Source: Moniliella sp. 'wahieum' (Eukaryota). From it: 64,000 nt of DNA. Shown piece by piece: positions 4,901 to 38,148 of this stretch (positions within the stretch are counted from its first letter, which is position 1; the number at the start of each line of letters is the position of its first letter). The stretch covers positions 62,001 to 126,000 of the forward strand of contig RSEE01000002.1 in the NCBI GenBank assembly GCA_003971905.1, written 5' to 3'. The position numbers and the translations under genes were made by a program. Under the pieces are notes generated by a model. That model ran no database searches. It saw only the letters and a program-made list of their open reading frames with translations, and was not told where the DNA came from.

Positions 4901-5515
4901 TTACAGATACCTCCGTGCGCTGGCGCGAACGCGCGAATCAAACGAGGCAGACAAGACGGGTGAGGTGGGCTCGCGGAGCGGGTTGAGGTTCAATTTGACC
5001 CACAGTTCCCACACGTCGAGAAAGAAATTGCGAATGCCATCGTCGTGCTTGTGCTCGTGCAAGATGAGGAAGCGCGTGCCGCCCGGGACGACAAGGCGCT
5101 GGTGGACCATTCGTGATCCGATCCACCCCCCGGTAGAGCGCGCCGTCGTACAGCGCCACATCCTCCACCGCATCAGACTGCTGTGCGCAATCATCTGCAA
5201 CGCATCCTTATCGTTGTACCGTCCAAAACTTAATCCGGCGCGCGTTCGCCCACCAGGACTGGCGCCGGCCGTCAAAGCCGTCACGCCGCCGGGCAACGAT
5301 CCCAGTGGCTGGCCAAACCCAAACGGACCCGCCTTCTCCTTCTCTGCCGACACGCCCGCCTTCGACTTGGGATCGGCTCGGTTGGTGCTCGTGCTGGGGG
5401 TGGGGCTGGTGGCCAGGAGCGACGATGGCCCGACCGAGCCGCCTGAGCGCGCGGCCAGGTCGGCCTCGTACAGCGGGTCGTCACGCGGACCGACAATGAC
5501 AAAGTAGTAGCTCAT
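4901..5515 (-). CDS. TRS20: TRAPP complex subunit, sedlin family
   Basis: MSYYFVIVGPRDDPLYEA ... LQMIAHSSL ... RFLILHE..DDGIRNFFLDVWELWVKLNLNP ... FDSRVRASARRYL. Confidence 0.9.
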   Translation of the reverse strand: MSYYFVIVGPRDDPLYEADLAARSGGSVGPSSLLATSPTPSTSTNRADPKSKAGVSAEKEKAGPFGFGQPLGSLPGGVTALTAGASPGGRTRAGLSFGRYNDKDALQMIAHSSLMRWRMWRCTTARSTGGWIGSRMVHQRLVVPGGTRFLILHEHKHDDGIRNFFLDVWELWVKLNLNPLREPTSPVLSASFDSRVRASARRYL

Positions 5516-11178: not shown

Positions 11179-12225
11179 GGCAACTCTTTACTCCAAAAAA
11201 ACAGCAGCAGGTGGTGTGTGTTCAACCGCCATCTTCCACTGCTTTTGGGGGGCAACATCCCATGCCTCTAGTTGAGCAGTATCCACGTCTAGTTGCCGTA
11301 GCCGAGACGCACGCCCAACAGCCCCCGTCAAAAAGCTAAGGGATATATATGACAGAGCCTTAAGCGGCCACATCTACGACGCTTCCTCTCGCTTGTGCCC
11401 CACAACGGCCTACTGTGACATGTGGCACGTGTGATGCATGATGGTTGCGCATCGATCGTTGCTCGGGCAGTTCGTTATACCCTCGGCCATATAAGGCCCG
11501 ATCCTTCCCATAGCCTCCTGTACCTCTCCTCAGAACCACATCCTCCATTCTCCTCCTCCTTCAGCAAAACATCTTGCTCGCCGTCGTGGTGTGGCATAGT
11601 GTCCTCGGGTCGTCATACCCAAAGGGAAGAACTAATGTTCATAACCTTAAGGTGCTTGGCGTTATTGGCGCATTCTGCTTGTTCCAACGCAGCAATCGAA
11701 GCAGCCCCTGCCTGAGGTCTTCCGGCGTTCCCAAGGCGCTTTTGTGGGGCTCTGTGCACCACCCTCCGGTACGCAGACGTGCCGTAATGAAACAGCCAGG
11801 GGGTTTGCAATGTCTGACCTATAAAAGCACGTGCAGCAGCGCCGCCAGAGGCCCGCTAGGGTAACGCCGGTAACGCTTCATCTTAATTTTTAGGTGATTT
11901 TAGGTGATACAGGAAGGTGATGGAACGGTGGGCCGATGGTTACCCGGTTCGGTCGCTCAGCACGGCCGGTAAACATGGGAATTGGTGGACAATGGCACGG
12001 TGGCCCGCTAGTGATATTACCGAGGCTGAACATTCAATGAAAGGGGGCCAAAGGCAGTAAGGAAAACGAAAGAAAGGCAGGGGAAACGAAGTGAGGCGGG
12101 GCGAAGCTTCTTCGAAGGTGCACACAGGGGGGACAGGGAGGAGAAAACAGGGGAGGGACCACATCATGGAGGAGAGGTGAAAGGGATCATCCATCATCCA
12201 TGGACCGGATCCACATCCGACTCGT

Positions 12226-14177
12226 TCAGCGCAAGTGCTTTTTGAAAAGTCACGGACAAAGTAAGCTGATCCGAGGTAGGTGCGGGGCAAGGTAGGTTGT
12301 TTATAGTCGACGGATTGGACGCCGAACCGAGGCTGCTTGCCTACCTCCCATTCGACGTTGCTGGTGGCGGACCAGAGCCAGGCGCCGACAATCTTGATCC
12401 CGTCGGTATGAATGGACTCAAGGATTTGGAGGAGGTAGCTGCGGTAGTACAGTTGTCGGCCCGTGTCCATGATCAGTTCCCAGTACGAGCTCTTTTGTGC
12501 TTCGTCCTTCTCCGCCCAGCCAAATTCGGTGATGATGATACCCTTGGGCGCGGGCCAGCGCTTGGCAATGTACTTCAAGTGCTCGCGGAACGCACCAGCC
12601 GTGTTGGCCAACCAGCTTGAACACGTCTCGTCCGGGTACGCCGTCGTGAGGGGCCACCCGTCCGACATGGTCATCGGGCCATTGGAACACCAGGGCCAGT
12701 TGGGGTGGGCAATGTTACCGTAGCATGCACTTGCCTCCTTGGCGGGCATCGACTGGGTGATGCCACTCGAGTAGTAGTCCGTGCTGTACACGTCGGCCGA
12801 GCCTTGCGACGCCGCCGCTTGTCGGCCGCAGTGAGCGGCGGAAGCCACTTGGCAGGCACCTCACGCTTCACCACGGGGGGGTAATCGTGCGTGTTGGAGT
12901 GGATGGGATCGCTGTACAGACCCAGACCAAAGTCCATCCCTCGCTCCACCGCTGCCTTGTCCGCATCGCTATTCGGGTCCCACGGCATGCTCAGCGCCCC
13001 GCTGTTTTTGTAGGAGAGCACTGCCTTCTTGGACACGGTCCATCGGTTTGGTACTTGCGGAACAGCTCGTTCATCCGTCCGTGGGCCTTGATCATGTACC
13101 CGGCGCATTTCCACTGCGTCGACTTGGGCGGGGACGCGTAGCCGTAGATGCCCTTCAAAGCGAGAAGGTACCGGTCCGTGCAGTGGACACTGGGCTCGTT
13201 GTGGGAAACCCAGTGCTAATGCCAGGGCAGCAGAGATGGACGGGTTACTCGTCAGCTTGATGATCTACTCACAGGTAGAAACGCAAGAGGGGGGGAAGAG
13301 AGGAGTGTGAAACATACCTGAACGCCCATGGGGCCCAAGGCCTTGAGCATCACATCCGCGTATTCGGCAAATGCGTCTACATAGGTGTGGTTCTGCTGGC
13401 CATTTTCGGAGATTTGAAGGTAGAGAGCAGGTCCCAGTGCTGCAGGGTAACTGCCGCCTGCATCCCGTTCTTGTGGATTTCGGTAACCAAGTCCTTGTAG
13501 AACTGTAGACCCTCTTGCGACACATACCCGCGTCCCAGCGGCATGACGCGGGACCAGGACACACTGAAAGAGTACAGCTTGGCGCCCATGGTGGCTACAC
13601 GCTTAATGTCGAGCGGGTACATGTAGCGGAAGTTGGTGGCCACGTCAAAGGTGTCGCCGTTGCGCATGTTGTTGGTGCGGTGGGCATACCAGTCCCAGAT
13701 CGAGGGTCCGCGGCCGTCGGCTTTGACTGCGCCCTCGACCTGCGCACTGGCCGATGCGTACCCCCACGAAAAGTGGGCGGGGAGGGTGACGTTGTCGCCG
13801 GCAAAGCCGAGCCCCAAGTCGTCCTGATAGGGACGGGGGTGATGGATTGGGGCATCATCTCGTAGTCGCTTGGCTAAAGTTACGGTACACATACTGGATC
13901 TTGGCATACTCGACCGGCTTGTACCGCTCGATCTCGGACCAGAGGAACTTGACTCGGCCCTGGACGGCAGCAGGGTTGTTGAAGTCGATGGGCTCGCCGC
14001 CGGGAGGGACGTGGCCGCCAGCCTTGACATTGGGGTTGCCAGAGGTGGCGGCGGAGGCGTGAGGGGAGGGGTGGGGCTTTTTTTGGAATGGTGAGCGGAT
14101 GCGGCAGCGGCAGGGGCAGGCGCAACCAGTGCGATGACCGCCAGGCCGGCCGCCCAGGCGGAGCACAGAAGACGCAT
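12226..14177 (-). CDS. Secreted glycoside hydrolase family 1 (beta-glycosidase), copy 1
   Basis: Signal peptide MRLLCSAWAAGLAVIALVAP; FSWGYASASAQVEGAVKADGRGPSIWD; YSFSVSWSRVMP; HWD; HNEP acid/base; IIITEFG nucleophile; EWEVGKQPRFG. Intron 13216-13317. Confidence 0.92.
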
Positions 14178-14239
14178 GGGGGGGACGGCGGGGAGGGGAG
14201 GGCGACAAGAAGGGCACGGCGGGTGTATTGGGCGAGGGG

Positions 14240-14254
14240 GTCTGTATATATAGC
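14240..14254 (-). promoter_or_regulatory. Putative TATA box of GH1 copy 1
   Basis: CTATATATAC ~70 nt upstream of the ATG; conserved in copy 2 at ~28087-28096. Confidence 0.5.
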
Positions 14255-14851
14255 AGCAGCACACCCGCCCTGGACGCGCTCGGGCAGGCATGGATGGGGC
14301 GGATCAGCGGTCGATCCGACGTGGCTGCCGCCAGGGCAGGCCAGCGCACACAACAGGTGACGAGTGACTGCCATGCGTGTCGGTGGCCTCTGGATGGAGA
14401 AGTGCGGGGCAGCGGCCGGCACAGCAGCGCACAGCAGGGCTGCCCAGCCACGGCTGCAGCCCGCACACTGCCCCCGTCCCTGCCCTTGGTGGTGCCAGTC
14501 TTCAGATCAACGCGTCCAGCACTGCGGCCAAGTACGAAGTACTAAGCTCGCATCCATCGTCACACATCCCGGCCGCCCAAGCAGCCCTGCTCCCTGCGCC
14601 CGGCCTCCGCGCTGAGCCACCTCGCGCGGGCAGCATGAGCACATGTGGACTGCCCGACGCAAGGAAGTTTAAGCCGTTCAAGCAGGTTTGGTGCGTAACC
14701 GCCCCCAGTCCCCAGTACGCAGTACGCCAGTACTCGCCCCTTGACACGATCAAGGATCGTCAATCATTAATCACCAACCTCAGATCTGTACGGTCCCCGA
14801 CGGCAGCTCGGCTCGGTCCTGCAAGGGCGTGCTCTGGTGGTGGGGGGGAGT

Positions 14852-18774: not shown

Positions 18775-19743
18775 TGGCGGTGGGGGCGGATGGGATCGGG
18801 GGGGCGGGAATGGGAGTGGGAGTCGGACGGGAAAATGCCAGGGGGCGATGGAGGGGAGGAGAGACGTGGTGCAGCAACAACCAACAGGGGGCACGGCAAA
18901 AAAGGGCAGTGCGGAAAGCAAACGAACAAGTGCGGATGGAGCTGCGCAGCTGACGTTTGACCCAGTCGCACCGCGAGTGTCAGTGTCTGCGCACGGGTGG
19001 GCAAGGCTGGAGGACGAGGTGCTAGGAAACGTGGGTCGTTGCTGCGTCCCAGGTCACATGGACGTTAGATCCGGTTGCATTGCTGAGGGGCCGCCCACCG
19101 GCCAGCGCGAGGCCATCGGGGCCGCCCAGCTGGTTTAATGAGTGGGCGGGCGCTTGTGGAGCAGGGTGGGCATGCCACATGTCGCCAGGGCAGATTTGAA
19201 TGCGCCAAAGTCCGACGCAGTGCGTCAGCGCGTCAGCAACTCAGCCGGAGCCGCCACCGCGCTGAGGCTCAGCCCTGCCCAGCCTACTGTCCGCATAATG
19301 TCAGATGTCAGCCGCTGAGGTCAGGCTAACAGCGAGGCTCACCAGGCGCGCCCGCGCCGGGCATCAATGCGCTGCGATGCTTCAGCCCTCGGCTTCGGCT
19401 TGCGGCATCCTGCCTGCCGTCGCTTCCACCGCTCCCGGCCGAGATGGCATGGTTCTAGTGCTCTTGGCAAGCGCCGTCATCGACCGACGAGCACACCCCG
19501 TGGTGTCCCAGTGCTCCCGAAACCCCCCTGAAGCTTCCCAAATTGTGCAAGAAAGGGGTAGAATGCAAACATTGAAGATGCGCTGCGTAGTGCTGCCCCC
19601 CCCCCCCCCCCGCTGATACGATGCTCTCTCTCGGGTTTTGGAGACCGACACTATGTAGCAATGCGCAGGACGCATCGGTAGAGTGTGCATTGTCGAGTAG
19701 ATAGCAGAAGGGACATGCCATGTGCTATGTCCCCATTGGCCGC

Positions 19744-22700
19744 TTACAGCTTTGCTCGGCCATCTTGGCCTGGAGCACCTTGGCAACGTGGTCGAGGAAG
19801 CCTTCGGTGGTCACATAGTCCTCCCGCACCATTGTCCTTGCCCTTCATGATGTACGCCAAGTCCTTTGTCACCACATGTAGGCCAGTCGTGTGGCCATGC
19901 ACAACTCCAGGCCATTCGTCCCGGTTGCCACTCAAGTCCTCCCTCTCTACATCCACTGGCAGGAGCTCATCCCAACCGAGTCTCCGGTTCCCTGGCCAGC
20001 GGGGGTGTTGACTGTGATCCTCTGGCTCCCAGTCGGTAGACCAGGTTCGCCTCGGTTCCATCGGCTTCCACGCTGACGTCCCTGCGTGTCACTGTCCCTG
20101 TGCCCTGCACTCTCCTGTGTGACTACTTCCCTGTGCCTAGTCCAGCCTCCTATATAGATGCCTCTGTACCCAGACCCAACTCTGGCTCCAATCCATCACC
20201 TTCTCCTCATCCTTCTGCCCGTCCGGCTCCCTAGGCCAACAGAGCTACAATCTGATCCCCCGGAAGGGGAGCGCTCTTCAAGCAAGCCCACCCCCAAGCC
20301 TACAAGCCCAAGCTAAGCCGCCAAGCCCACAAGACACACCCGTCCTCCCGCCCAACACACCACCGCCACAATCGGCACCTTACCGCCACAATCGGCATAC
20401 TACCGACCGCCAATCGGCATACTACCGCCACAATCGGCACACTCGTCCCCCACAGATGGGGCAATGATTTTTAGGGACAACACACGACGGAACAAAACGT
20501 GTCGGGTATCGTCAACGAGACGAAATTCCTCCAACGACAAAACGGCGCAGGCGAATCGCAGAAAGCGGGGGTGGCTGCTCATCAAGTGCCCCACCCACGG
20601 CTACACGCCCCGGATTGCCAATTCATCCGGGGCACCTGGGGAAAGGATGGGGGGGGTGGTCACCCAACTTCTTCCACTCCTTCTTTTTCAACAACAAAGA
20701 GAACCCAAACAGATCAAGACGGTTGACGCATAGCGCCCGTTCATTTCCCATGCCCAATGGACCCACTGGCACCAGGCATGCGGAACCAAACAACTACCAA
20801 CGCATCCAATTTTGATGCCAAACGACCTTGGACCGCATTTACTCCAAGTTTCCAATTTCTTTCACTACACCTATAACTGGTGCTTTTTACTTTTGCCCAC
20901 CAAATCGCTTCGGGGCGCAACCCCTACTACTTTTACTTCTAAGACTTCTACAAGCATCTGGCGGTCGCACAATACACCAACCACAAGCGCTCGGCTCGTT
21001 CAGGTGTCATCCTGGACAGCGGGGGTGTAGGCCAGTCGTGTGGCCATGCACAACTCCAGGCCATTCGTCCCGGTTGCCACTCAAGTCCTCCCCTCTCTAC
21101 ATCCACTGGCAGGAGCTCATCCCACAACCGATGTCTCCGGGTTCCCTGGCCAGCGGGGGTGTTGACTGTGATCCTCTGGCTCCCAGTCGGTAGACCAGGT
21201 TCGCCTCGGTTCCATCGGCTTCCACGCTGACGTCCCTGCGTGTCACTGTCCCTGTGCCCTGCACTCTCTCCTGTGTGACTCACTGTCCCTGTGCCTAGTC
21301 CAGCCTCCTATATAGATGCCTCTGTACCCAGACCCAACTCTGGCTCCAATCCATCACCTTCTCCTCATCCTTCTGCCCGTCCGGCTCCCTAGGCCAACAC
21401 CACATTGTCCTTATCGATCGTGTGGATGCAGGCGTCCTCCAACAGCTGCGCAAACTGCACCAGCTTCTCGTTGCCATCCAGCTGGCCTCGGAACTTGAGC
21501 CCACGCGTCCACGCGTAGATCGAGGCGACCGAGTTGGTCGACGTCTCCTTGCCCTGCTGGTGCAGGCGGTAGTGCCTCGTGACCGTGCCGTGCGCCGCCT
21601 CCGACTCCATGGTGCGTCCATCGGGTGTGATCAGCTCCGAGGTCATCATGCCCAGCGAGCCAAATCCCTGGGCCACAATGTCCGACAACACGTCCCCATC
21701 GTAGTTCTTGCACGCCCAGACAAACCCGCCGTGGCCCTTGATGGCCTGGGCAACCATGTCGTCAATCAGGCGGTGCTCGTACCAGAGCCCAAGCTTTTCA
21801 AACTCGGCCTTGTACTCGGCCTGGTAAATCGCTTCAAACGTGTCCTTAAACTTGCCATCGTACGCTTTGAGAATGGTGTTCTTGGTGGCCAGGTACAGCG
21901 GCATCTTTTTGCTCAATGCCATCTTGAACGATGCATGGGCGAATCCCTCAATCGACTCGGTCGTGTTGTACATGCTCATTGCGACACCGCCCTGTTCAGG
22001 TACTGGTATACCGGCCACACCTTCTTGGTCCCATCCGCTGCTTCAAACGTCATCGTCAACTTGCCCGGCCATCAATGACGGTATTGACACAACGGTACTG
22101 GTCGCCAAACGCATGACGGCCAATGCAAATGGGCTGTGTCCATCCGGGGACCGGTTTGGGAATCTTGTCCAACACAATCGGTTCGCGGAAGACGGTACCC
22201 GCGAGAATGTTGCGAATGGTGCCGTTGGGAAGCCACATTTTCTTTAGCCCAAACTCCTTTACCCGTGCCTCGTCGGGGTGATGGTGGCACACTTGACGCC
22301 CACAGCATACTTTTGATGGCATTCGCTGCATCAATGGTGATCTGGTCGTCGGGCATCACGCGAGGTGATGCTCAAGTCATAGTACTTGAGATCAATATCG
22401 AGGTACGGCAGGATCAGTTCCTCCTTGATCTTCTCCAGATGATCCGCTGCAGAAAAGGAAATCGCCCAGTCAGCTCCACCGCTTTCTCACTCAAGCGCAT
22501 TCCAACATGACGAGGGGGAGGGGGCAAACGCACATACCGTCATCTCGTCGCCATCCAGCTCAACCACAGGCTGGTCAACCTTGATCTTGGATACTGTCAT
22601 ATATATAGCCCCGCATCGTCAGGTTAGTCCGGCTGCGTGATAGGAAGCAAGGGGACACGGAAACGTACCGGCCGACGTTGAAGCCAAGGCGAAGGAGCCT

Positions 22701-22871
22701 TGACGAAGGAGAGCGGGGGAGAGGGAGCGGGCCGGCGACGGCACGCAGAGCGCTCCCGGCCCGGAGCGGAGTTGCAGCAGCAGTGGCCAGGCGGGCTGAG
22801 GGGGCACGGAGGGCCATGTTGCACGAAAGGCCGGCACTTGCGCGGCACACCGATGGTGAGGGGCGTAGCAT
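19744..22871 (-). CDS. IDP1: NADP-dependent isocitrate dehydrogenase, interrupted near the 3' end by an LTR element
   Basis: [100 protein letters not shown]. Remaining C-terminus ([16 protein letters not shown]) lies at 19744-19876. Confidence 0.95.
19877..21399 (+). mobile_element. Non-autonomous LTR retrotransposon (TRIM-like), copy A, long LTRs
   Basis: Direct repeats 19877-20241 and 21026-21399 (TGTAGGCC...GGCCAACA). TSD CCACA at 19872-19876 and 21400-21404. PPT-like CAGCGGGGG before 21026. TATATAG in the LTR. No gag/pol motifs recognised internally. Confidence 0.93.
20362..20443 (+). repeat. 4 x ~20-bp tandem repeat (ACCGCCACAATCGGCAtact) in element leader
   Basis: Seen directly; also present inverted at ~31254-31337 in copy B. 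Confidence 0.85.
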
Positions 22872-25800
22872 GGAGCAGAGTGGAGCAGAGGACGTGGTGG
22901 ACAAGAAGCAAGCAAGAGCGCCGGTCGGGCTTCCAGCTACTTGGCCCGAGCCGAGCCCAGCTGCTCATCTGATCTCCCCATCTCAGATGTTGCCGTGGTT
23001 AAACCCGCCTGGACCGCACTGGGGCCGTCTCTGTCGCCCAGCAGCGCCAGCCCGGCTGCCCCGGTCGATAATTCACTTCAAGCTTCAAGCTTCACGCTTC
23101 GAGTCCGAGAGTCCGTGCCATCTCCGTCGACGTCAGCTTCCCATCGGAGAAGTTCATCCGTCCCGAGGGGCGGAATACGGGTTTGGGCGGAATCAAAATG
23201 CCGTGGAGGCGCTGACTTGCCCATAAGGCCGTCTTTTTTTTTTCCTCCTTCGTCTCCACCCTCCCACCACCATCCCTGATCTGGGCGCAGTTTCATTGTT
23301 TGGTTGTCTTCTGGACACCGGACGCATCCCTTTCGGTAAGTCAACCAAACTTCCAACCTTTTCCCCCGTCATTCTTGGGCCTTGGGCTCTGCCCGACCCA
23401 GACAGGACGTTCGATGATGAGAAAACATGCTGGCACCAGTCGTACTTTTTATGCCGACAAGCTATTGCGGGGCGTCTCTTAATACGCTATGTCGCCCCCT
23501 GACCTTTCCATTGCTCCCTTACTGCAAGGGAACATCGTGCTGACCTCCTCCTTTGTGTCTTTTTCTCTTGATTGCTGTTGCTCCGCCTCACCTTGGCCTC
23601 GTTTGCTTCGTTGTTGCTATGCATCCCCCCTCGCTCATCCTTGCTCCGTCTGCCGCCTATACCTTCTTGAGTAAAGTTACTCATCGGCCCGTATAGTGTA
23701 GACCCTGCCAGACCCCATCGCACCAGTTGGCAGCTCGCCTGCTCCTCAGTTGCATAGGAATCGGCATCTACCGTCCTCATCTATTACTACGCAGAACGAA
23801 CATCGGCTCTTCCGAGATTACTCGCTAGTTCTGCGCCGATCATTTTCACCCAGCTGGACCAGGTGTTCATACCAAAAAACTAGGCCAACTGACTGCAACA
23901 TGTCAGCGCAGATGTGACATGGTCGATGAGATCTGAGAGGGGAGGGGGAGAAGGGGAAAATGCGCTGGAAGGCGCTGGTTGGTCGTTAATGGCCAAATAC
24001 TAGCACCAGTTTTCCGAGCAATCCTTCGGGTCCGTTCGGCTATAGTGTCCGCCGATCTGTTTCACGGCTTTTCGGTATAGCTTTTCCGGTGCTGCGTGGG
24101 CACCGTCTCATGGTCCAACAGCACGCCGATTCGCACTTTATTGTGCTCAACCTTTCGTCATGATGACCACGGATAACTTACACATCGAGTCGAGTCCATC
24201 TCGAGGAGAACCCTGCTTTTCATTATCGCCTCCAGCGGGAATTGTGGGGACAGGCACCTGGCAGCCCCGAGTTTTCCATGACTCGCATCTCTCTCGACAC
24301 ATGGCACTGCTACGCGAAAGCTATTACAGCAACTCGTGCCATTCACCATTTTGATGCGTACGAGTCAAAACACACTCTTCCTTAGTATTGTAGCATACGC
24401 TCTCTCACCATCTTCTTGTTCCTATAGCCATAACGAAAGGGAGCGCAGATTACTGCCCCTTTGGACTATATAATAACTCCTATCGTCACAGTGGTTGCTG
24501 GGGGAGTCAACGCCGGGTCCCATCAGTGGGCTCGTTCCAGGTATTTGAGAGATACAATCCTTTACAGGTCGTCCGAACGTCACTGGCTCACAACTCATGG
24601 TTGTTAGTACTTGAGCTGGTTGTGGTGGATGCGCGTGGGGTTAGGGCCAAGAAGTGACCTCTCTCAGCGTATAGTAGAGCGGCTGAAAGTGTGGCAAGGT
24701 TGTGTATGCACCGGCTTGGGCAGAGAAGTAGCAGCATGTGTGATTGAAGCCTTCGGGCTCAGTCGGGGTCGAGGATGAGTGGCAGTGGAGGACAAAAGAC
24801 CGCCACAGCTGGGACAGAGGATGCTTGGCACGCCCCTTCTCCCTTCGAACTTGGGGGGTGCAGGCCAGGTCTCTTCTCATTCGCACGCTCCTCCTTCCTT
24901 CACTCGTCGAGGTAACGAATCAAAGCCTTCCTGGGAGGAGGGAAAGGAAAAGGGATTTAGAGGCTCTGTGTTGACCAGCCGGCCAAAATTTCTCGTTTCT
25001 TCACTCGGACTTTGAAGAGACAGGGCCCTTGTTCCGCCTGCTTTCGTTCTCTCCCATTGTTGCGCGGGTCTACTGGAGAAGATTGGAAGGGGTCAGCATG
25101 CCCCGCTCTGATGACTCTCACCCTCCCCAACACGGGGGGGGGTGTTGTTCTGTTGTACTATCATCCGTTCTGTAAAATTTTTCGAAGAACTGATGAGAAA
25201 TGACACGATCCAGGTCATCGTATTCGACAGCGCTTCGGTCCGCGTGCGCGAAAGGATCATTATCGACGGAAAAGATGGAAAAAGTGTCCGCAAGATGCGT
25301 GAGAGTCCCGTGCTCACGGCATTATACTACTAGTATCCTTGTATGCAATGTGGTGTCTGCGTGTGTTAAAACAACTTGACCATCCGTGATTGCTACCACA
25401 GTTTTCTTATCCTCTGTCAGCATATCAGCAACCCTTCCTTCCTCAAGAGGCCTATACATCAGAAGGAAATACCTCCAGATTATGAATGAAGAGAGGCGTA
25501 CCAAAAGGTATATGGAGAGATGGTTCATATCATATTCACCGTGGCGCTTTCATCTTGAGTGCGTGTGGTGACGCTTTAATTACAGTGCACCTCAGGTGTG
25601 GTCTGGGGGATTGGTGATAGAAGATGTGGGGCCGGAGGTATTATCAGAAGCGGCGCGTCGGTGGGCTTACTGTTCCTGAGGAGATGCGGTGTGTTGATGA
25701 GACGTTGAACGTTGATGCATGGTGGTAGGGCGCTTGGGACCTAAAAGGAGAGAGGGGGACAGACGTGGTGACGGGTGTATAATATGCGTGTGGCTTGTAG

Positions 25801-28147
25801 GGGAAAGGGAGGATTATTGTCAGTAGTTTGATCGTTGGATGAGAGAGCCGAGTACGTTATTGCTGTTGTGTGCGGGCAGTTGCGGGGGATTGTACACGTT
25901 GCTACTACTGTCCATGCAGGTCTCCTTTGGAGGGGGAGGGGAAACGGGATAACCAGTTACGGGGTTAGGTTCAGGTCCAAGTGTACTGGTGGGGATATGG
26001 GCTGCGGAAATGTGCTGCAAAAATACTCCGGCCCCTTCATCAGCTCTCTGGGCTTTTTACCGGTTCCGGCTGATTGCTTACCCCACCAGGTGATCACCAT
26101 CACATGTCACGCGTCACGTGCCACATGTCACGTTTCAATGTTCAACGTTCGACGTTCTGTACGTGTTCAGTACCCAATGCCAGTCCTTAATAGGCCTTCG
26201 GCCTTTGAGCCTGTTAGGCCTAAGGGTTGGTGGGGCAGCAGTCTGCACGAGCTGCCCGAGCCCGAGCAGACGCGGCAGTTCTGAGACCATGGCGCATCGA
26301 TCATCGACCATGATCGGCATCATCATTAACTCCGGTGACCGGTGACCGGTGAGGACTTGGAGAGAGGTCTGGGTAATATACCAGCGTTAGTATATGCCGG
26401 TTACATAGAAGCGTTTTACGTATACAAAGACAGGATGATCTGGAGCTGGGACCCGTTGCACGTTGTGGACCATGGGACCCCGCACCGACTAAGAGTACAC
26501 GAGTTTGCCACCCCCAGAGGTCCCGGCGCCCCATGCAGCACAAATACCGCCTGGTTCGGACCTGCGGGAGCAGCTAGGAGGTGTGGATGAAATCCCCGAA
26601 ACCAGTGGTGTGGAAGGCGGCAGGGCATATGCAACCGACCTTTTTCTGCCTCCCCCTTGTGTGCGTGTGATCGGCTTTTCCGGAGAAATCTCAGATCTCA
26701 TCAACGTACCTGGGCACCCTACTGTGCACGTGTAAGCATGTGAGCGCATGGGCACAGCAGCGCTCAGCCTGAGCGCGTGAGTCGCGACCAGCATGTGCAG
26801 TACAATACAACACCGCGTCCACTAATCGTCCGAGGCCCAGAGCAGAAGGTGTATTGGACAGATGCCTCTTCCCACGCCAGGCGTTGGGCTACTAACGTTG
26901 TGACGCGATAACTCGATAACCCCACCCCAGACCAGCGCGTAACGCGTAACGAGTAACGAGAGGAATGCATGAATGTGCGGGCGACAAACGAGTAACTATT
27001 AGGTACGTTGGCTTGAAGCTTGAAGCTTGAAGCTTCTCAAGTCTGAGATCTGATCGATGATCGGGCCTCTCCCTGTTTCAGTCACTAGTCACTTCGCTCG
27101 CATGGTGTGGAATGGTTAATGGAGAGACGAACCAAGACGACCCCTGCGCCAGACTCCATGCTATATAGCTGTGCGGAGAAGTACCGGTTACCGCTTACCC
27201 GCCATCTTACCTGTTAACCCTACCGACACGCCGCATTCCATTTGAGGCGCTCAGGCGCTCAGGCAAGGAGGGGGGACACCAGTGGACGCCTGTGGCTGTG
27301 TGAAACCCATTTCCTATCTCCCACCCTGCACAGAATTCCAGATGGATGCCCGGGGCGATCAGTACGTAGCAAGTAGCGCCGTGCCGTGCGAGCAAGTATA
27401 TTGTTACACGTTGTTAGTTTATAGTTGCTAGTTGCTATAGTTACTAGTTACTAGCTTTACCCTCCCTCCCCCCGCCACCCGAGCAGTCCTCTCAAGTCCC
27501 CTGCAGTCCTCTGCAATGCCCTGTGATGCATGTGATCATGTGATGCATGATGCAGTCCCCTGCAGTCCCCTGCAGGCGCGAGCCGAGCTGCCGTCGGGAA
27601 ACGTACCGCGTTCTGACGTGGGTGATTAATGATTGACGTGCCATATTCCCTGGCCGTGTCATGGGTGACCGGTGAGTACTCCGTCCTGGGAGCGGTTAAA
27701 TACTAACACTGCTTGAACTGCTTAAAGCTACCTTGCGTCGGGCAGTCCACACGTGTCCTCGTGCTGTCCGCGCGAGGTGGCTCAGCGGCAGGGAGCAGGG
27801 ATGCTTGGGAGGCCGGGATGTGTGATGATCGGTGCGAGCTCAGGCGCAGTGCGGGACGCACTGACGCGCTGCTGCGCTGAGCGCTGATCGGGGGATCGGC
27901 ACAAGCACCGGCAGGGACAGGGGCGGTGTGTGGGATGCGCCCCGCACTTTTCCATCCAGAAGGCCACCGACACGCATAACCCGTGCGTGCTGGCCTGCAC
28001 TGGTGGCAGCCTCTTGGGAGCGATGGCTGATCCTCGATCCGCCCCATCCATCCCAGCCCGAGCGTCCGAGGCGGATGTGCTGCTGCTATATATACTGATC
28101 CCCGCGCGCCCAATACACCCGCCGTGCGTTGCCTCTCTCCCCCCCCA

Positions 28148-30079
28148 ATGCGTCGTTTGTGCTCCGCCTGGGCGGCCGGTCTGGCGGTCGTCGCACTGGT
28201 TGCACCTGCCCCTGCCGCTGCCGCATCCATTCGTTCCAAGCCCCACCCCTCCGCCTCCACCTCTGGCAACCCCAATGTCCAGGCTGGCGGCCACGTCCTG
28301 CCCGGCGGCGAGCCCATCGACTTCAACGACCCTGCTGCCGTCAAGGGGCGAGTCAAGTTCCTCTGGTCCGAGATCGAGCGGTACAAGCCGGTCGAGTATG
28401 CCAAGATCCAGTATGAGTACCGTAACTTTAGCCAGAGCGACTACGAGATGATGCCCCAATCCATCACCCACCGTCCCTATCAGGACGACTTGGGGATCGG
28501 CCTCAAGACAGACAACTTCTCCTTCCCCGCACACTTTTCGTGGGGGTATGCTTCGGCCAGTGCGCAGGTTGAGGGCGCAGTCAAAGCAGATGGCCGTGGC
28601 CCCTCGATCTGGGACTGGTATGCCCACCGCACCAACAATATGCGCAACAATGACACGTTTGACGTGGCCACCAACTTCCGCTACATGTACCCGCTCGACA
28701 TTAAGCGTGTAGCCACCATGGGCGCCAAGCTGTACTCTTTCAGTGTGTCCTGGTCCCGCGTCATGCCGCTGGGACGCGGGTATGTGTCGCAAGAGGGTCT
28801 ACAGTTCTACAAGGACTTGGTTACCGAAATCCACAAGAACGGGATGCAGGCGGCAGTTACCCTGCAGCACTGGGACCTGCCTCTCTACCTTCAAATCTCC
28901 GAAAATGGCCAACAGAACCACACCTATGTAGACGCATTTGCCGAATACGCGGATGTGATTCTCAAGGCCTTGGGCCCCATGGGCGTTCAGGTATGTTTCA
29001 CACTCCTCTCTTCCCCCCCTCTTGCGTTTCTACCTGTGAGTAGACCATCAAGCTGACGAGTAACCCGTCCATCTCTGCTGCCCTGGCATTAGCACTGGGT
29101 TTCCCACAACGAGCCCAGCGTCCACTGCACGGACCGGTACCTTCTCGCCTTGGAGGGCATCTACGGCTACGCGTCCCCGCCCAAGTCGACGCAGTGGAAA
29201 TGCGCCGGGTACATGATCAAGGCCCACGGGCGGATGAACGAGCTGTTCCGCAAGTACCAAGCCGATGGGACCGTCCAAGAAGGCACTGCTCTCCTACAAA
29301 AACAACGGGGCGTTGAGCGTGCCGTGGGACCCGAACAGCGCCGCGGACAAGGCAGCGGTGGAGAGAGAGATGGACTTTGGCCTGGGTCTGTACAGCGATC
29401 CCATCCACTCCGACACGCACGATTACCCCCCCGTGGTGAAGCGTGAGGTGCCTGCCAAGTGGCTTCCACCGCTCACTGCGGCCGACAAGCGGCGTCTGCA
29501 AGGCTCGGCCGACGTGTACAGCACGGACTACTACTCGAGTGCGATCACCAAGTCGCTGCCTGCCAAAGAGGCAAAAGGATGCTACGGGAACACTGCCCAC
29601 TCCAAATGGCCCAACTGTGCCGATGGTCCAATGACCATGTCGGACGGGTGGCCTCTCACGACGGCGTACCCGGACGAGACGTGTTCAAGCTGGTTGGCCA
29701 ACACGGCTGGTGCGTTCCGCGAGCACTTGAAGTACATTGCCAAGCGCTGGCCCGCGCCCAAGGTATCATCATCACCGAATTTGGCTGGGCGGAGAAGGAC
29801 GAAGCACAAAAGAGCTCGTACTGGGAACTGATCATGGACACGGGCCGACAAGCTTACTACCACGCCTACCTCAACCAGATCCTCGAGTCCATCCATACCG
29901 ATGGAATCAAGGTTATCGGTGCCTGGCTCTGGTCGGCAACATGCAACGTCGAATGGGAGGTAGGCAAGCAGCCTCGGTTCGGCGTCCAATCCGTCGACTA
30001 TAACCAACCTACCTTGCCCCGCACCTACCTCGGATCAGCTTACTTTGTCCGTGACTTTTTCAAGAAGCACCTGGGCTGA
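28148..30079 (+). CDS. Secreted glycoside hydrolase family 1 (beta-glycosidase), copy 2
   Basis: Same motifs as copy 1 (HWVSHNEP, IIITEFG). Intron 28991-29092. Ends ..RDFFKKHLG*. Confidence 0.92.
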
Positions 30080-30296
30080 ACGAGTCGGATGGGGATGCGG
30101 TCCTCGGATTATCGATGATGCCCTTCACCTCTCCTCTTCCATGATGTGGTCCCTCCCCTGGTTTCTCCACCCGTTCCGCTCTGTGTGCACCCTCGAAGAA
30201 GCTTCGCCCCGCCTCACTTTCGTTTCCCCTGCCTTTCTTTCGTTTCCCTACTGCCTTTGGCCCCCTTTCATTGAATGTTCAGCCTCGGTAATATCA

Positions 30297-31696
30297 TGTT
30301 GGCCTAGGGAGCCGGACGGGCAGAAGGATGAGGAGAAGGTGATGGATTGGAGCCAGAGTTGGGTCTGGGTACAGAGGCATCTATATAGGAGGCTGGACTA
30401 GGCACAGGGACAGTGAGTCACACAGGAGAGAGTGCAGGGCACAGGGACAGTGACACGCAGGGACGTCAGCGTGGAAGCCGATGGAACCGAGGCGAACCTG
30501 GTCTACCGACTGGGAGCCAGAGGATCACAGTCAAACCCCCGCTGGCCAGGGAACCCGGAGACATCGGTTGTGGGATGAGCTCCTGCCAGTGGATGTAGAG
30601 AGGGGAGGACTTGAGTGGCAACCGGGACGAATGGCCTGGAGTTGTGCATGGCCACACGACTGGCCTACACCCCCGCTGTCCAGGATGACACCTGAACGAG
30701 CCGAGCGCTTGTGGTTGGTGTATTGTGCGACCGCCAGATGCTTGTAGAAGTCTTAGAAGTAAAGTAGTAGGGGTTGCGCCCCGAAGCGATTTGGTGGGCA
30801 AAAGTAAAAAGCACCAGTTATAGGTGTAGTGAAAGAAAATTGGAAACTTGGAGTAAATGCGGTCCAAGGTCGTTTGGCATCAAAATTGGATGCGTTTGGT
30901 AGTTGTTTGGTTCCGCATGCCTGGTGCCAGTGGGGTCCATTGGGCATGGGAAATGAACGGGCGCTATGCGTCAACCGTCTTGATCTGTTTGGGTTCTCTT
31001 TGTTGTTGAAAAAGAGGAGTGGAAGAAGTTGGGTGACCACCCCCCCCATCCTTTCCCCAGGTGCCCCGGATGAATTGGCAATCCGGGGCGTGTAGCCGTG
31101 GGTGGGGCACTTGATGAGCAGCCACCCCCGCTTTCTGCGATTCGCCTGCGCCGTTTTGTCGTTGGAGGAATTTCGTCTCGTTGACGATACCCGACACGTT
31201 TTGTTCCGTCGTGTGTTGTCCCTAAAAATCATTGCCCCATCTGTGGGGGACGAGTGTGCCGATTGTGGCGGTAGTATGCCGATTGTGGCGGTAGTAGTAT
31301 GCCGATTGTGGCGGTAAGGCGCCGATTGTGGCGGTGGTGTTGTTGGGCGGGAGGACGGGTGTGTCTTGTGGGCTTGGCGGCTTAGCTTGGGCTTGTAGGC
31401 TTGGGGGTGGGCTTGCTTGAAGAGCGCTCCCCTTCCGGGGGATCAGATTGTAGCTCTGTTGGCCTAGGGAGCCGGACGGGCAGAAGGATGAGGAGAAGGT
31501 GATGGATTGGAGCCAGAGTTGGGTCTGGGTACAGAGGCATCTATATAGGAGGCTGGACTAGGCACAGGGACAGTGAGTCACACAGGAGAGAGTGCAGGGC
31601 ACAGGGACAGTGACACGCAGGGACGTCAGCGTGGAAGCCGATGGAACCGAGGCGAACCTGGTCTACCGACTGGGAGCCAGAGGATCACAGTCAACA
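30297..31696 (-). mobile_element. Non-autonomous LTR retrotransposon (TRIM-like), copy B, short LTRs
   Basis: Direct repeats 30297-~30536 and 31457-31696 (TGTTG...CAACA, 240 bp). TSD TATCA at 30292-30296 and 31697-31701. Near-identical to the reverse complement of 20006-21399. Confidence 0.95.
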
Positions 31697-32389
31697 TATC
31701 ACTAGCGCACCATCGTACTCTCCTCCACCATTCCCATGTCCACCGGTCGTGCTGGGCCATCGTAACCATCGGCTCACCGTCCTGTATCACTCAGAAATTA
31801 ACGATGAAGCGTTGTCCCCATATGCCTCCATAGTTATTTCTTTCCAGTGCCTATAAACGCATCTTCGCCACCGTCTTGGGTGGCATAGTATTGTCCTTGC
31901 CCCAAACTCAATGGGGGGAAAAGGGTTCTTGGGGGCGCTGTTATACATGATGTGCTTGTCGCCTTCTGCTCGTTCCAGCAGCCGAAGCAGCTCCTCCCGG
32001 CGTTCCAAACGCGTCGTAGTGCTCTCATGTACCACCTTCTAGGCAGTACGCAGAGCCTCTAAAATAGATCCCCTTTTTACTGTACGTCATCAGTGCTTAC
32101 CGATTTGTTTGCGCCAGTGGAGGTATCGGCCTCCGACCAACACCGCGCTCAGCCATGCGTCTTGGTGATACAATTTCGCTCAACCCGACTCTGCTACTCC
32201 CAGCGTGGAACGGGGCAAGGTGGTTGCGGTGGCGACGGTGGCCCAGCATGCAGCACCCAAACCGGGCCGTAGGCCCGGAGGTCTCCTAGTAGCTAGTCAG
32301 CCTGTAGTGTCACGGGGCGGGCCCCGGCTCCCCCCCCCCCAGGTGGCTCGCCCGGGGTTTTGGGGGTACGATAATTCCTTAGGAGACGG

Positions 32390-32830: not shown

Positions 32831-35621
32831 TCAACCAGGGGTACAGGATAGATCAAAAGGGAGAACGTGTACAAGAGGAGGTGTAGAAAGGAAAAAGACA
32901 CGTCAAAAGATGGGTTGGTCGCCGCAGATGCGACCGAGAAAGGAAAGGAAGTGGGGACAGAAGCGACAGTCGTTGTAAAGATACCGTAAGTTTGGTGGCC
33001 TTCAGTATTTAGGCCATCCGACTTTTGGACTTGGGCGGGGGGCGACTATTGTTGCACGGACGCATGGCCCCTCGAGCCACCGTTCCTAATTTAACCCACC
33101 ACCATCACACTTGGTTGGACTGCGGAGCACGCTCTCCTGGGCATGTGCGGAGCAGGCGGGCCTTAGCTTGGACCGTCCCATCCCGCGTCCAACGCAGCCC
33201 GTAACAATCTTTGAGCGTTTGACCGTTTGGTGTTGGGTCCTATATTAACGTCCTAACTGGTCGCTGAACTTGCTTCTCGATGCCTCTCATCGACATCAAG
33301 GTAGCATTATGCATTACTCCGCATCTCAACGCCGAGGCCCATTCTAAGGGTTGGCCGAGCGGTTGCTGCGCGCTGACTGCGTGCGTATACTGGGAGTACT
33401 GGGCACTTCTGGAATCCTGACCGACAGCTGCGAAGGTAGTGGCATGTGGCACATGACATGCATGGCATGTGACACACCGGTGCATGTGATGCGTGTGATG
33501 CGCGTGATGCACGTGATGGGTGATGTGTGTGACATGGAGCATGCGGAGTACCGGGAGTACCTAGCTACCTCGGCAACTAGTAAAAGGTACGTCCATTTTT
33601 GCGACAGCGCAGGGGGAGGGGGTGCGCTGGTTTGCCACCCTGTGCGCACGCACAACGGGGCTCCGCAGGACTCCGCTTGGCTGGACCTGCGCATTCCAGG
33701 GATGGCCAATGGCCGATGGCCGATCGATGGGCTCAATCGTAATATAACCGAGGTTTTGTGGGGTCTGGGCCACGCGTCCTGCGTCCTGCGCGCGGAGTGC
33801 AGGAGAGTAAGAGGATGGGGATGAGTACACTGAGTCCTGTGAGTGCATGAGAACGCTACTATGTTGATCTATGTGAGCGTGCGGGTGCGACGCAGGCTGG
33901 TGCGACCCTCTGTCGACTGTCGATCATCAAAACGTTGAATTGATCTTCGAACCATCTCCTCTTAGGCGAGTACCGCGTATCCAATAAAGCGGGAAGGTGC
34001 AATACAGGAGACAGAAGACGACGTCTGGACGGTTCTGGGTGAGATGTGTGGCCGCCTGCGGTTGCTGCCTGCAGAGGATAGGTGGGTCCTAGCATCGTAG
34101 CCTCCCTTTTTGGCGGGGTTTGCTGGTTTTTCCAGGCGACGTTCCCGGGTTTCCGCGGTATGGCATGCAGGTATAGCCGGTAGAGTTTACCGGGAGATCG
34201 CTATGTAGGTCCTGACTTGCATTGGCTATCCATTGAAATTTAATATTGGTCTTGAAGCTTGAGTACTTACTGACTACCGAGTGTGTCGATTCGATAACAG
34301 AGGGCACAGCCGCGGTGCGTTCGGCGCCGTTCCGTTAAATACAAGGGAAGATGATCGGTAGGCGATCGAGATGATCGCATGCATCATGCATCAAACATCA
34401 TGCATCGTGGCCGAATTATTCCCACCTAATGAGTACGTTTAATGCATAATGAGTACTGAGTACGCAGGGAAGATCGGCGATGTGCAGTCGCGGGAGCAGG
34501 CTGGGCCTGGGCCTGGCTGCGGATAGAGCTGCTAGTGGGGAGGGGCCGGGGACAGCTGGAAGGCCTGCAGGGCGCACAGCGGCCGGCTGGGCGGGCCGGA
34601 GTTATGGGTGCAACGTGTTAAGCGTTAAGCGCCAAGCGCCAATACTGCTTGCTATGCGCCAACCCAGGGGCGGGCAGAGGCGCAGTGTGGGCCCAGGGCC
34701 TCCTCCGAGGGGCGCAGTAGGGCGCAGTGCGGTGTGGTTCGCAGGACCACGCTCGCCCTGGCCAGCGGGGGAGGAGTGTGCTGCGTGTGAGAGATGCTGT
34801 CAGGTGTGCGGAGCGTGTTTCAGGAGTGGCCTCGCTAGGCTGGGCCAGTGCGGGGGGCGAGGGGGGGAGCGATCGGGTCGGCTTGGCTTGGCTTGTGCCT
34901 GCTCTGGCTCGTCGTCCCCGACAGACGCTCGCACCGCCCTCGTGGCCGCCGCTGCGCTCCAGGCGGCTCCCGGCCGCTACCTGCTGCTCTGCCGCATGGG
35001 GGCGCCCAGGAGCGCACATCGGGGGGGCCCAGGAGTGCGCCTCCGCCGTTGGGCCGACGCTGCTGGGGTGGCGCGTGGGTGGGGGCGCATGCTCTGACAA
35101 GCGGCGCTGGTCGATGGCATGTGCAGCCGCCGCACAGTGCCCCGTGCACCGGGGCTGCCCCGGTGCTGGGGACGGGGGCGGGCGCACGGAGCCAGTGTGC
35201 TGCTGCGTGTGCCATATTATATAGCGCGACTCGGCCTGGGCACGCGGCTGCCTGTTGGTGCGGCGCACATGAGATGGGCGATCGGGGGAGCGCCAAGGGC
35301 GAAGCTGTGGAGGATGAGATGAAGCTTGGAGCGGACGGACGAGGCGCGGCGCTCCGATCGCTTCTTCGGGCTCGCGAAGAGCACCAATGGGCGTCGAATT
35401 GCCGCTCACACATCATGCATCAGCACACACCCCACGGATGCCCACGCGCCTCATCAGCCACAGCCATCGTCGGATATCATCCTCGCCCTCTCGCCACACC
35501 TCTCCGCTGCCCAGCCCTGCCCTCCCACGCAGCCCCCCCGCAGCACATCGCTTTCCTTGGCACCACCACCACCTCCCGCCTCCTCTTCGGGCTGGCCTCA
35601 CACCCAGCCTCTCGTAGCAGT

Positions 35622-38148
35622 ATGCCCACCCACACGTCCCCAGCGGCCTTTACGCCGCTCGACACCACGCCCTCCGACACGGGCAGCAGCGACGCAGCCC
35701 CCCCCCCCTCGCCCGCGCCACCACCTCCTCTCCCCCGGCTGGCGCGCCTCCGTCGGCTTACCATCCGTCTGCTCGTGCGCCCTACCTTACTTCCTCTCCC
35801 CCCCCGCTTCCCCCTCCGGAGCCGGGAACGAAGCCCAGCGCGCCTTGCACGCCGGCCTCTTCCCCGTGTCTACCACGCTGTCCGCTCAGCAAGCCGCTGG
35901 CTTTGGTCCTACCTCCGCCTCCAGCTCCACCGCTCTCGTTACCAGCAGCGCAATCTCGTTCCGCGACGCAGCCAAGACAGGCGCCGCTTTCCCGACCAGC
36001 GCCCCTGCTTCCACCGATACAGGCAACCACTCTCCCGCGCGATACGGTGCGTTCCCCGCTGTGCCTGGTGAGGAATATCAGCTGGGCGGGCTGTACAGCT
36101 ACGACTTGGACGAGCTCGACGACGATTTGCACAGGATCCAGTTCGTGTCGGACGGGCAGGGCGGACAGCGGGTGATGCTGGAAAAGGGGTCGAGGGTACG
36201 GGCGTGGGCGAATGCCAGGGCAATCATGAATGGAGGCACGGTGTTGGTGCTGCTGCTGGGACTGCTGATGCTGTTTGCTGGCTACCCCATCCTTACCCAC
36301 TACCGTCACCACCACAACAACCTTGGTGGCTACGGTCCTGGCGGTACTAACGCGTCTGGTCAAGTGGGCAGCGTGCCCGGCGTGCGCACCGACCTGATTG
36401 ACCCCGACACCCCGCAAGACGCCTACACCCGTCTCTCGGCAGACGGAACAACTACGCTCAAACTCGTCTTTTCCGACGAGTTCAACACCCCCGGACGCAG
36501 CTTTTACCCCGGTGACGAGTACGTTTGTGCCTGTTATCGTTATCTTGCTTTATGCCTGCTGCGCGCCGATACAAACAACGGGCGCCGGATGCTGACCTAT
36601 TTTCACCCTCTCCCTTTCCCTCTCTTTCGCGCGCTTCTCTCTACGCATATTTGCTGCGCACTACCCAGCCCTTACTGGGAGGCGGTCGACCTGCACTACT
36701 GGGCGACGAACAACTATGAGTGGTATGACCCTGCAGCCGTGACGACGCAAGGGGGTGCCTTGCACATCACTCTCTCTCAGCACCCGGAGCACAACCTCAA
36801 CTTTCGCGGGGGCATGATCCAGTCATGGAACAAGTTTTGTTTCACGGGCGGCGTGTTGGTTGCCAGTGTTCGCTTGCCCGGCTCGGCGACCGCGGCTGGG
36901 CTCTGGCCTGCGATTTGGATGATGGGCAACCTAGGTCGTGCCGGGTACGGCGCTACACTGGAAGGCACCTGGCCCTACAGTTACGATGCTTGCGACGTGG
37001 GTACGCTGGCCAACCAACCGACCCTACGACCAACGAACCAAACACGGCCGTGTTGGGCAACTGCCCCTTTAACCGCAAACACAGCAGCAAGTCCCTCTCC
37101 TTTCTGGGTGGCCAGCGTCTCTCGGCCTGCACGTGCCCCGATGACGACCACCCCGGACCCAAGTTGGCCGATGGCACCTTCCCAGGCCGAATGGCCAGCG
37201 AGATTGATCTGTTTGAGGCGCAGGTCAACGGGCAACAGCAAATGACTGTATCACAGTCGGGGCAGTTTGCCCCGTTCAATGGTACGTGTGTCGTCGATGT
37301 CTTCTCTCTTCTCTCTTCTCTCTTTGTGTTTCCGCTCCCGATTGCCTAGAGCTGGCATTGGTTGGCGCTGGGAGTGCGACCCCAGCAACCTGTGTGCTAA
37401 CCCCTTTTCTCCATCCCACTCTCTGCTTCCTAGCCTACTACCGCCCCATGACCAAGCCGCAATTGTTCGACCAACGAACCATTATCAACTCGTACACGGG
37501 CGAGCTGACGCAGCAGAGCATGTCGGGTGTGACGCCCACGAACCAGCTGGGCGTAGAGTACTTGACCAACGGGATATGGGCATCTTTACCGAATACGCCG
37601 TCGAGTACGAGCCGGGCCACGACGGCTTTATTCAATGGGAGTCCAGTGGCCAGCCTGCGTGGCGCTTGACTTCGGAGCAGCTGGCAGCCGACCCTGTGGC
37701 CAACATCTCTTCCCGTCCCGTCACGCCCGAACCGCTCTACATTCTTGCCAATCTGGGCATCTCGCAAAACTTTGGCACACCCTCGTGGAAGAAGCTGGTG
37801 TGGCCCTCGACCATGTCGATCGACTGGATCCGCGTGTTTCAAGATCCAGCCAAGATCAACGTTGGGTGCGATCCGCCAGATTACCCTACCCAAGACTACA
37901 TTAACCGTCACATCGAAGCGTACACCAACCCCAATCTGACCGTCTGGGGCGCAGGCGAGAGTGGCTACGGTGCAAACTGGCCACGCAACCGCCTGAACCC
38001 AGGCGGATGCGATGCCACTCCTTCCACATCCGCAGGAAGCCCGACGGTCCCCGTGCCCAAAGCCCAGGCGTACCCCTCTGCGGCCATTGGCAACCATCAG
38101 CCCCAGTGCGACGTGTCGGCGTGGAATGATGGCCAGATCCAAAATTGA
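35622..38148 (+). CDS. KRE6: Beta-1,6-glucan synthesis-associated type II membrane protein (GH16, KRE6/SKN1 family)
   Basis: DELDDDLH, TM segment LVLLLGLLMLFAGYPIL, LIDPDTP, LVFSDEFN..GRSFYPGDDPYWEAVDLHYWAT, GMIQSWNKFCFTGG, GNLGRAGYGAT.EGTWPYSYDACDVGTL, GQRLSACTC, EIDLFEA. Introns 36519-36668 and 37282-37433. Confidence 0.92.

Follow-up and report, generated by a model that had tools for sequence, protein, structure and literature searches.

Extra polypurine tracts in retroelements

Extra polypurine tracts (PPTs) near the 3′ long terminal repeat (LTR) are known in several groups of retroelements, and their role is treated as unclear in the literature. Here we examined a small LTR retrotransposon in a 64-kb stretch of DNA from the fungus Moniliella sp. 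'wahieum' (64,000 nucleotides; GenBank assembly GCA_003971905.1, contig RSEE01000002.1, positions 62,001–126,000 of the forward strand; hereafter the window, with coordinates counted from its first letter). The element occurs as a near-identical natural pair of insertions, copies A and B, one of which uses the upstream and the other the downstream of two tract-bearing modules as its left end, each with a proper target-site duplication (TSD). Judging from sequence, we put at roughly 0.72 the probability that the resulting difference in LTR length is set by a choice between two plus-strand primer sites on the same RNA. The element is a 1.4–1.5-kb non-coding LTR retrotransposon of the terminal-repeat retrotransposon in miniature (TRIM) type: apparently an ordinary small non-autonomous element with an unusual, seemingly working, duplicated left-end module, and as such a naturally occurring example of something already considered possible; it does not define a new class of element.

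In the Sireviruses, a group of plant Ty1/copia elements, several identical PPT copies cluster near the 3′ LTR, at most a few hundred bases away from it, and the excerpted text of the study describing them asks whether the upstream copies can prime and transfer (PMC2829016). This clustering of multiple PPTs near the 3′ LTR is shared by the Moniliella element. The upstream Sirevirus PPTs are without an attachment site, and the excerpts report no integrated upstream-primed products (PMC2829016), whereas in the present element a TG start and an inverted repeat belong to the upstream tract, which is used by the TSD-flanked copy A. Sireviruses also have a conserved octamer, AGGGGGAG, which lies 10 bp upstream of their 3′ LTR, along with an AT/TG attachment site (PMC2829016, in part). 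The present element, non-autonomous and in a fungal host, has neither AGGGGGAG nor the Sirevirus spacing, and its tract AGCGGGGG abuts the TG directly. The same question was reportedly put in 1996 by Bowman, Pathak and Hu, who are said to have engineered retroviral vectors with an added internal PPT and attachment (att) site: do plus strands begun at an upstream PPT undergo transfer and give a provirus with an extended LTR? Compared with those engineered vectors, the present tracts are only 134 nt apart and there is a natural insertion of each kind.

Extra PPTs in Athila4/Calypso, in Ty1 (PPT2) and in HIV-1 (the central PPT) are named beside those of Sireviruses in the excerpts of PMC2829016; Bongo3 has a PPTa (PMC3605345, in part), alternative PPTs have been proposed in HIV (bioRxiv 10.1101/2023.06.12.544617, in part), and in Ty3 a central PPT is reported to be absent (PMC5371799, in part). 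The Ty1, HIV-1, Bongo3 and Athila4/Calypso sites resemble the present tracts in that one RNA has, in fact or putatively, two plus-strand primers, but they lie kilobases upstream or in coding sequence and, in the portions of these sources that deal with them, are not reported as an alternative LTR boundary.

In being short and without coding capacity, and in having LTRs, a putative primer-binding site (PBS), a PPT and a 5-bp TSD, the element resembles TRIMs and large retrotransposon derivatives (LARDs) as characterized in parts of PMC13570524 and PMC3532108. At 1400/1523 bp, with LTRs of 240 and 365/374 bp, it is above the classical TRIM size of <~1 kb with LTRs of ~100–250 bp, a limit that the excerpted source itself applies more loosely (PMC13570524). 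It further differs from TRIMs and LARDs in that its putative PBS is not a tRNA 3′-end site and that its LTR length is dimorphic within one sequence family. The same source, which dates from 2026 and surveys sugar beet for elements of the non-autonomous kind, uses PPTs as supportive annotation only in its excerpted text (PMC13570524). In the open-access text searched, we found no report of a natural family with integrated copies of two LTR lengths set by two PPT/att modules.

Two insertions with different left ends

We analysed the window by a BLAST search with copy A, a repeat search and alignments, and the BLAST search returned copies A and B as the only members of the family. Copy A lies on the + strand at 19877–21399 (1523 bp) and has LTRs of 365 and 374 bp. 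Its 5′ LTR (19877–20241, 365 nt) runs from TGTAGG to CAACA and is followed by the putative PBS GAGCTACAATCTGATCC (20242–20258) and by a non-coding internal region (20259–21010). The upstream polypurine tract, tract 1 (CCTGGACAGCGGGGG, 21011–21025), comes next and leads directly into TGTAGGCC, the start of the long LTR. The 374-nt 3′ LTR (21026–21399) consists of an extra 134 nt (21026–21159) and the equivalent of a short LTR (21160–21399); the extra segment ends with the downstream polypurine tract, tract 2 (CCTGGCCAGCGGGGG, 21145–21159), which leads directly into TGTTGAC, the start of the short LTR. In the 5′ LTR the corresponding extra U3 segment spans 19877–20005 and likewise ends with a copy of tract 2 (19991–20005). 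The TSD of copy A is CCACA, identical on the left (19872–19876) and the right (21400–21404), where it is flush with the CAACA terminus.

Copy B lies on the − strand at 30297–31696 (1400 bp), with LTRs of 240 and 239 bp. The 5′ LTR (31457–31696, 240 nt, TGTTGAC...CAACA) is 100% identical to 21160–21399 of copy A, and the putative PBS (31440–31456) is identical to that of copy A. Tract 1 is intact at 30670–30684, as part of an exact 18-mer match at 30667–30684, and is again followed by TGTAGGCC; here, however, the 134-nt segment (30536–30669, with tract 2 at 30536–30550) is single and internal. The 3′ LTR (30297–30535) has 239 nt because its junction with tract 2 reads GGGGGT-TTGAC, one G short; this G, which is present in the other three copies of the junction, is the only difference between the two LTRs of copy B. 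Its TSD is TATCA, at 31697–31701 on the element's 5′ side, flush with TGTTGAC, and at 30292–30296 on the 3′ side.

All four LTRs thus end in CAACA and start with either TGTAGG (long) or TGTTGA (short), and in both copies the 5-bp TSDs, within the accepted range of 4–6 bp, abut the termini exactly. Each start forms a terminal inverted repeat with the common right end: TGTAGGCC matches TGTTGGCC at 7/8 positions, and TGTTG matches CAACA at 5/5. The 134-nt segment is framed by two copies of CCTGGMCAGCGGGGG plus TGT, each abutting an LTR start. The tract-containing 18-mer CCTGGMCAGCGGGGGTGT has five matches in the elements against 0.00 expected from 100 shuffles, and elsewhere in the window there is a single match with two mismatches, CCTGGCCAGCGGGGGAGG at 34757–34774 (+), which lies in a GC-rich region of open reading frames (ORFs) without LTR similarity around it and is probably due to chance. 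This architecture agrees closely with an initial annotation of the locus, which had placed two near-identical tracts 134 nt apart at 21011–21025 and 21145–21159, had copy A begin exactly at the first TG and copy B exactly at the second, with the LTR lengths of copy A and both TSDs as given here, and had noted the same 7/8 and 5/5 inverted repeats. One detail needs adjusting: the extra segment, rightly said to be kept once in copy B, had been located at 30537–30669, one base short of its actual extent.

The two copies are mutually inverted and lie 8.9 kb apart. As each has its own matching TSD pair, this arrangement did not come about by inversion through recombination between them.

The RNA of an LTR element begins at R of the 5′ LTR and stops at R of the 3′ LTR, so that it holds a single U3, at its 3′ end, from which both U3 copies of the DNA are made. 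On its left, the DNA starts where plus-strand strong-stop DNA starts, at the base that follows the PPT cut. Between the start of tract 1 and the end of the element, the one missing G is the only difference between copies A and B, and each has both tracts and both TG starts: tract 2 with TGTTGAC is intact in both LTRs of copy A, and tract 1 with TGTAGG is intact in copy B. Because the 5′ U3 is untranscribed and the sequence from tract 1 onwards is shared, the two forms would be expected to give the same RNA, and the difference between them would arise at plus-strand priming, the one step able to make both LTR lengths from that RNA; because both tracts are intact in both copies, use of either site did not require damage to the other.

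In the mechanism we favour, the element RNA would carry, just upstream of its 3′ end, two near-identical plus-strand primer modules 134 nt apart, each composed of a G-rich polypurine tract and, directly after it, a TG start that is inversely repeated at the CA end common to both forms. A start after tract 1 would make the 134 nt part of U3 and have them copied to the 5′ end, yielding 374-bp LTRs as in copy A; a start after tract 2 would leave them internal, yielding 240-bp LTRs as in copy B. Integrase would accept both left ends, consistent with the clean 5-bp TSD on each copy, and with the same RNA made from both forms, either form could yield either form. Both copies would then descend from one RNA architecture and differ in their plus-strand start. 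We infer the priming events, the acceptance by integrase, the partner and the frequency with which each site is used.

Orientation, lineage and assembly

If the element were read in the opposite orientation, the two tracts would be alternative minus-strand PBSs and the length difference would lie at the U5 end; priming at an inner or an outer PBS predicts identical DNA structures. Since two alternative PBSs in reverse predict the same architectures, both orientations were tested for purine content, tRNA 3′-end match and anticodon stem-loop geometry. The classical TGG primer site is absent from the element termini in both orientations, a point that leaves room for the reverse reading. In the noted orientation, the 8 nt before either LTR start, AGCGGGGG, are 7/8 purine and abut the TG. 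The 17 nt that follow the 5′ LTR (GAGCTACAATCTGATCC) have the complement GGATCAGATTGTAGCTC, shaped like tRNA positions 24–40: it contains a 7-nt loop, TTGTAGC, with U33, the anticodon GTA and a purine at 37, the stem pairs 30–40 and 31–39 form, and the primer 3′ end falls at position 40, abutting the LTR. Read the other way, the element would have a PPT of only 3/8 purine and a PBS without U33, stem pairs or TGG that complements no tRNA 3′ end or anticodon stem-loop. Thus the orientation of the initial annotation passes the purine and stem-loop tests and the opposite one fails every test; the tracts very probably lie on the PPT side, and the reverse reading is decidedly unlikely.

This PBS geometry recalls that of the hemiviruses copia, Ty5, 1731 and Osser, in which a half-tRNA primes cDNA through the 3′ OH of its nucleotide 40 (PMC1181622, in part). 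The putative PBS resembles theirs in lying directly next to the LTR and in being complementary to an anticodon stem-loop whose end is position 40; in contrast to them, the anticodon is GTA (Tyr) and not that of the initiator Met, a fit known from geometry alone. No tRNA gene was found in the 64-kb window. A copia-like, half-tRNA-primed partner probably mobilises the element.

The two LTR lengths might also mark two fixed sublineages, long-LTR and short-LTR, each breeding true through sequence differences that govern the choice of tract. With only two copies (n = 2) and a missing G in copy B that shows junction variants to occur, such a split is conceivable, but copies A and B differ by just 2 substitutions and 12 gap events over ~1400 aligned columns, their tract regions are identical save for that G, and it is the short-form copy that is without the G, contrary to the needs of a lineage making short LTRs only. 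Under the standard replication scheme, moreover, both forms yield the same RNA. We regard separate lineages as quite improbable.

The left boundary of copy A can be checked against the gene it interrupts. This NADP-isocitrate dehydrogenase (IDH) gene lies on the − strand and is broken ~50 codons before its end: the cut-off 3′ end is at 19728–19876, and the 5′ continuation runs upward from 21400 (21400–22042+). It was identified by matches in PDB (1lwd, E = 3.7e-94) and Pfam (Iso_dh), and its relatives belong to Ustilaginomycotina/Exobasidiomycetes, by which the fungus is akin to the smuts. For the alignment, six homologues were hand-picked among 120 listed, three at 90–94% identity and three named Exobasidiomycete proteins. 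The upstream part of the gene ends in ...IDKDNV plus one base (G), and the downstream part starts with (T)GTG GTG ACA, or VVTKDLA. When the element and one TSD are removed, the gene reads IDKDNVVTKDLA (DKDNVVTKDL), ungapped against 6/6 homologues and letter-identical to proteins P0001 and P0002 in DNVVTKDL. Because the frame closes exactly, the long terminus at 19877 is a true integration boundary and not a mis-join, in keeping with its initial description as an integration end. Copy B lies ~215 bp downstream of a family-1 glycosyl hydrolase (GH1) gene, so that no frame test applies there and its boundary is set by the flush 5-bp TSD.

In the tail of the IDH gene a frameshift of one base occurs near 19827 (KGKDNG / REDYV, where relatives have KGKDM(T/V)REDYV). 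The interrupted gene may represent a knocked-out allele, a single haplotype in a diploid or dikaryon, or a fault of the assembly.

The frame test also bears on whether the difference in LTR length is an assembly artefact, with 129 nt wrongly added at 19877–20005 or 134 nt dropped at 31696. The assembly is rich in indel errors: the 5′ and 3′ LTRs of copy A differ by seven deletion events totalling 9 nt, all in the 5′ LTR, and by no substitution. Indels without substitutions indicate consensus errors and not ageing, and with such errors LTR divergence is unusable for dating. Five sequencing runs were listed, of which three contain 6–13% of the sampled words; the X1–X3 contigs that could be placed on the element cover parts of the LTR and internal region only, cross neither 5′ terminus and have depth 0 over 19677–19936. 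These points would suit an artefact, but its start would have had to coincide with the very TG that follows tract 1, the 5-bp TSDs are flush in both forms, the boundaries of copy A restore the IDH frame exactly, and the 5′ copy of the 134-nt segment has deletions of its own, marking it as an independent consensus. We judge an artefact highly improbable.

One contig from an X1 wastewater metagenome (143 nt) matches 21160–21272 without mismatch, and its end coincides with 21160, where the short LTR begins. At a depth of 3, this end is at most a weak hint of a repeat boundary in the assembly graph.

Integrase 3′ processing usually removes 2 nt. As improbable as an artefact is single priming at tract 1 with integrase sometimes cutting at the internal TGTTG, 134 nt in, to give the short form: this site and the right end match well as inverted repeats (5/5, or 6/8 when the first 8 are compared), and cleavage at internal att-like junctions has been discussed for two-LTR circles of foamy virus (PMC1180852, in part), but removal of 134 nt is far beyond the usual extent of processing, the near-perfect copy of the primer tract (14/15 nt) that precedes the site goes unexplained, and an X3 metagenome contig described below appears to use tract 2 plus TGTTGA as its own junction between internal region and LTR.

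Overall, the two-PPT interpretation of copies A and B is supported. Several considerations weigh against a choice between two primer sites, however. The window holds a single copy of each form and, by the BLAST search with copy A, no solo LTR. The assembly that supplies the long 5′ terminus, a region of zero contig depth, has the errors described above (9 deleted bases with 0 substitutions in the LTRs of copy A, and the 1-nt frameshift in IDH). The junction of tract 2 and U3 in copy B is without its G; this may be an assembly error, and if it is real, copy B could be unable to make a proper short end. The assignment of the putative PBS to tRNA-Tyr follows from geometry only. Vector work, as cited in the excerpts of PMC2829016, indicates that normal PPT priming and transfer, together with early removal of the tRNA, usually prevent strand transfer initiated upstream, and by analogy one of the two forms may be a rare by-product; short distances between PPTs weaken this kinetic argument, according to the same excerpts (PMC2829016).

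Regular interconversion, beyond a single insertion as a rare mispriming product, would extend the choice between primer sites to the family as a whole, and the extra 134 nt of U3 might change promoter activity. More tentatively, the family could have two states, in which each retrotransposition sets the LTR at 240 or 374 bp, reversibly gaining or losing the 134-bp part of U3 while the RNA stays unchanged, and in which two left ends (TGTAGGCC and TGTTGAC), with a hybrid right end (TGTTGGCC), could serve two partner integrases; we hold this extension to be doubtful. If more copies confirm the pattern, the element would offer a simple natural system for the choice between competing plus-strand origins, for how much sequence integrase needs at the U3 end and for whether reversible changes in U3 length alter expression. 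In practice, LTR-finding software will split or mis-bound such families, and dating by LTR divergence must not treat long and short forms as different families.

Candidate partner, module origin and neighbouring features

The element has no coding capacity of its own: none of its 11 ORFs of at least 60 aa matches Pfam at E ≤ 0.1, and among the 150 ORFs scanned of the 152 in the window of at least 130 aa, none encodes reverse transcriptase, integrase or gag. A candidate partner came from an X3 metagenome contig of 5089 nt. Its positions 160–177 match 20238–20255 exactly (the last four LTR bases and the PBS), and its positions 4998–5018 give an exact 21-nt match to 19992–20012 (tract 2 plus TGTTGA), in the same order and on the same strand. 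The matches lie ~4.85 kb apart, and the contig sequence outside both is unlike the element, the shared features being the PBS ...GAGCTACAATCTGA and tract 2 with TGTTGA. This contig probably represents an autonomous partner with an internal region of ~4.85 kb, common PBS, PPT and terminal bases, and a different LTR body. By this comparison, the canonical junction would be tract 2 plus TGTTGA, with tract 1 and the 134 nt as an added module. A motif from the loose end of the contig has 0 matches in the window, so the LTR of the candidate partner is not located there. A second X3 contig, of 270 nt, matches the internal region at 20283–20553 with seven differing letters and three gaps.

The 134-nt segment is flanked by a direct repeat of ~19–20 nt, which suggests that the extra module may have arisen when reverse transcription switched templates between related elements. 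Sabot and Schulman have reportedly described complex LTR retrotransposons of template-switching origin. The present element shares with them the remnant of an LTR start, equipped with a PPT and placed upstream of the actual 3′ LTR, and by this analogy a template-switched relic is a likely origin of the 134-nt module; it differs in that the relic module still appears to be a working element end.

Other searches added little to the family. A scan of metagenomes with the tract pattern gave 88 loci, 80 of them with flanks. Among these 88, copy A had one BLAST match, of 22 nt, which falls within an ordinary protein-coding stretch without LTR structure nearby and was set aside as chance. A 26-nt LTR motif had 0 matches in the genome contig collection. 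Predicted RNA folds gave z = −2.75 for the tract 1 region and z = +0.70 for the tract 2 region, and among them we found neither a structure common to both tract regions nor a clear counterpart of the Sirevirus inverted repeat. The only Rfam matches, two sub-threshold ones to RsmY that reached 18 and 16 bits where the gathering score is 57, were likewise dismissed as chance.

Within the LTRs of copy A, TATATAG boxes can be read from the letters at 20151–20157, 90 nt from the LTR end, and at 21311–21317 (both +). Just downstream of the PBS, each copy has a tandem array of ~4 units of 20–22 nt, close to CACACTACCGCCACAATCGG, at 20356–20443 in copy A and 31233–31338 in copy B, and the few differences between the copies that look real cluster in these arrays.

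Elsewhere in the window, 24001–26000 is the stretch of lowest GC content (0.517, against ~0.58–0.60 around it), with no ORF hit found there. The GH1 gene near copy B (28031–30076, +) and a KRE6/SKN1 gene (35323–38145, +) are each in three pieces in different frames, which reflects either introns or indel errors, and a second GH1 paralogue (11943–14303, −) is split in two.

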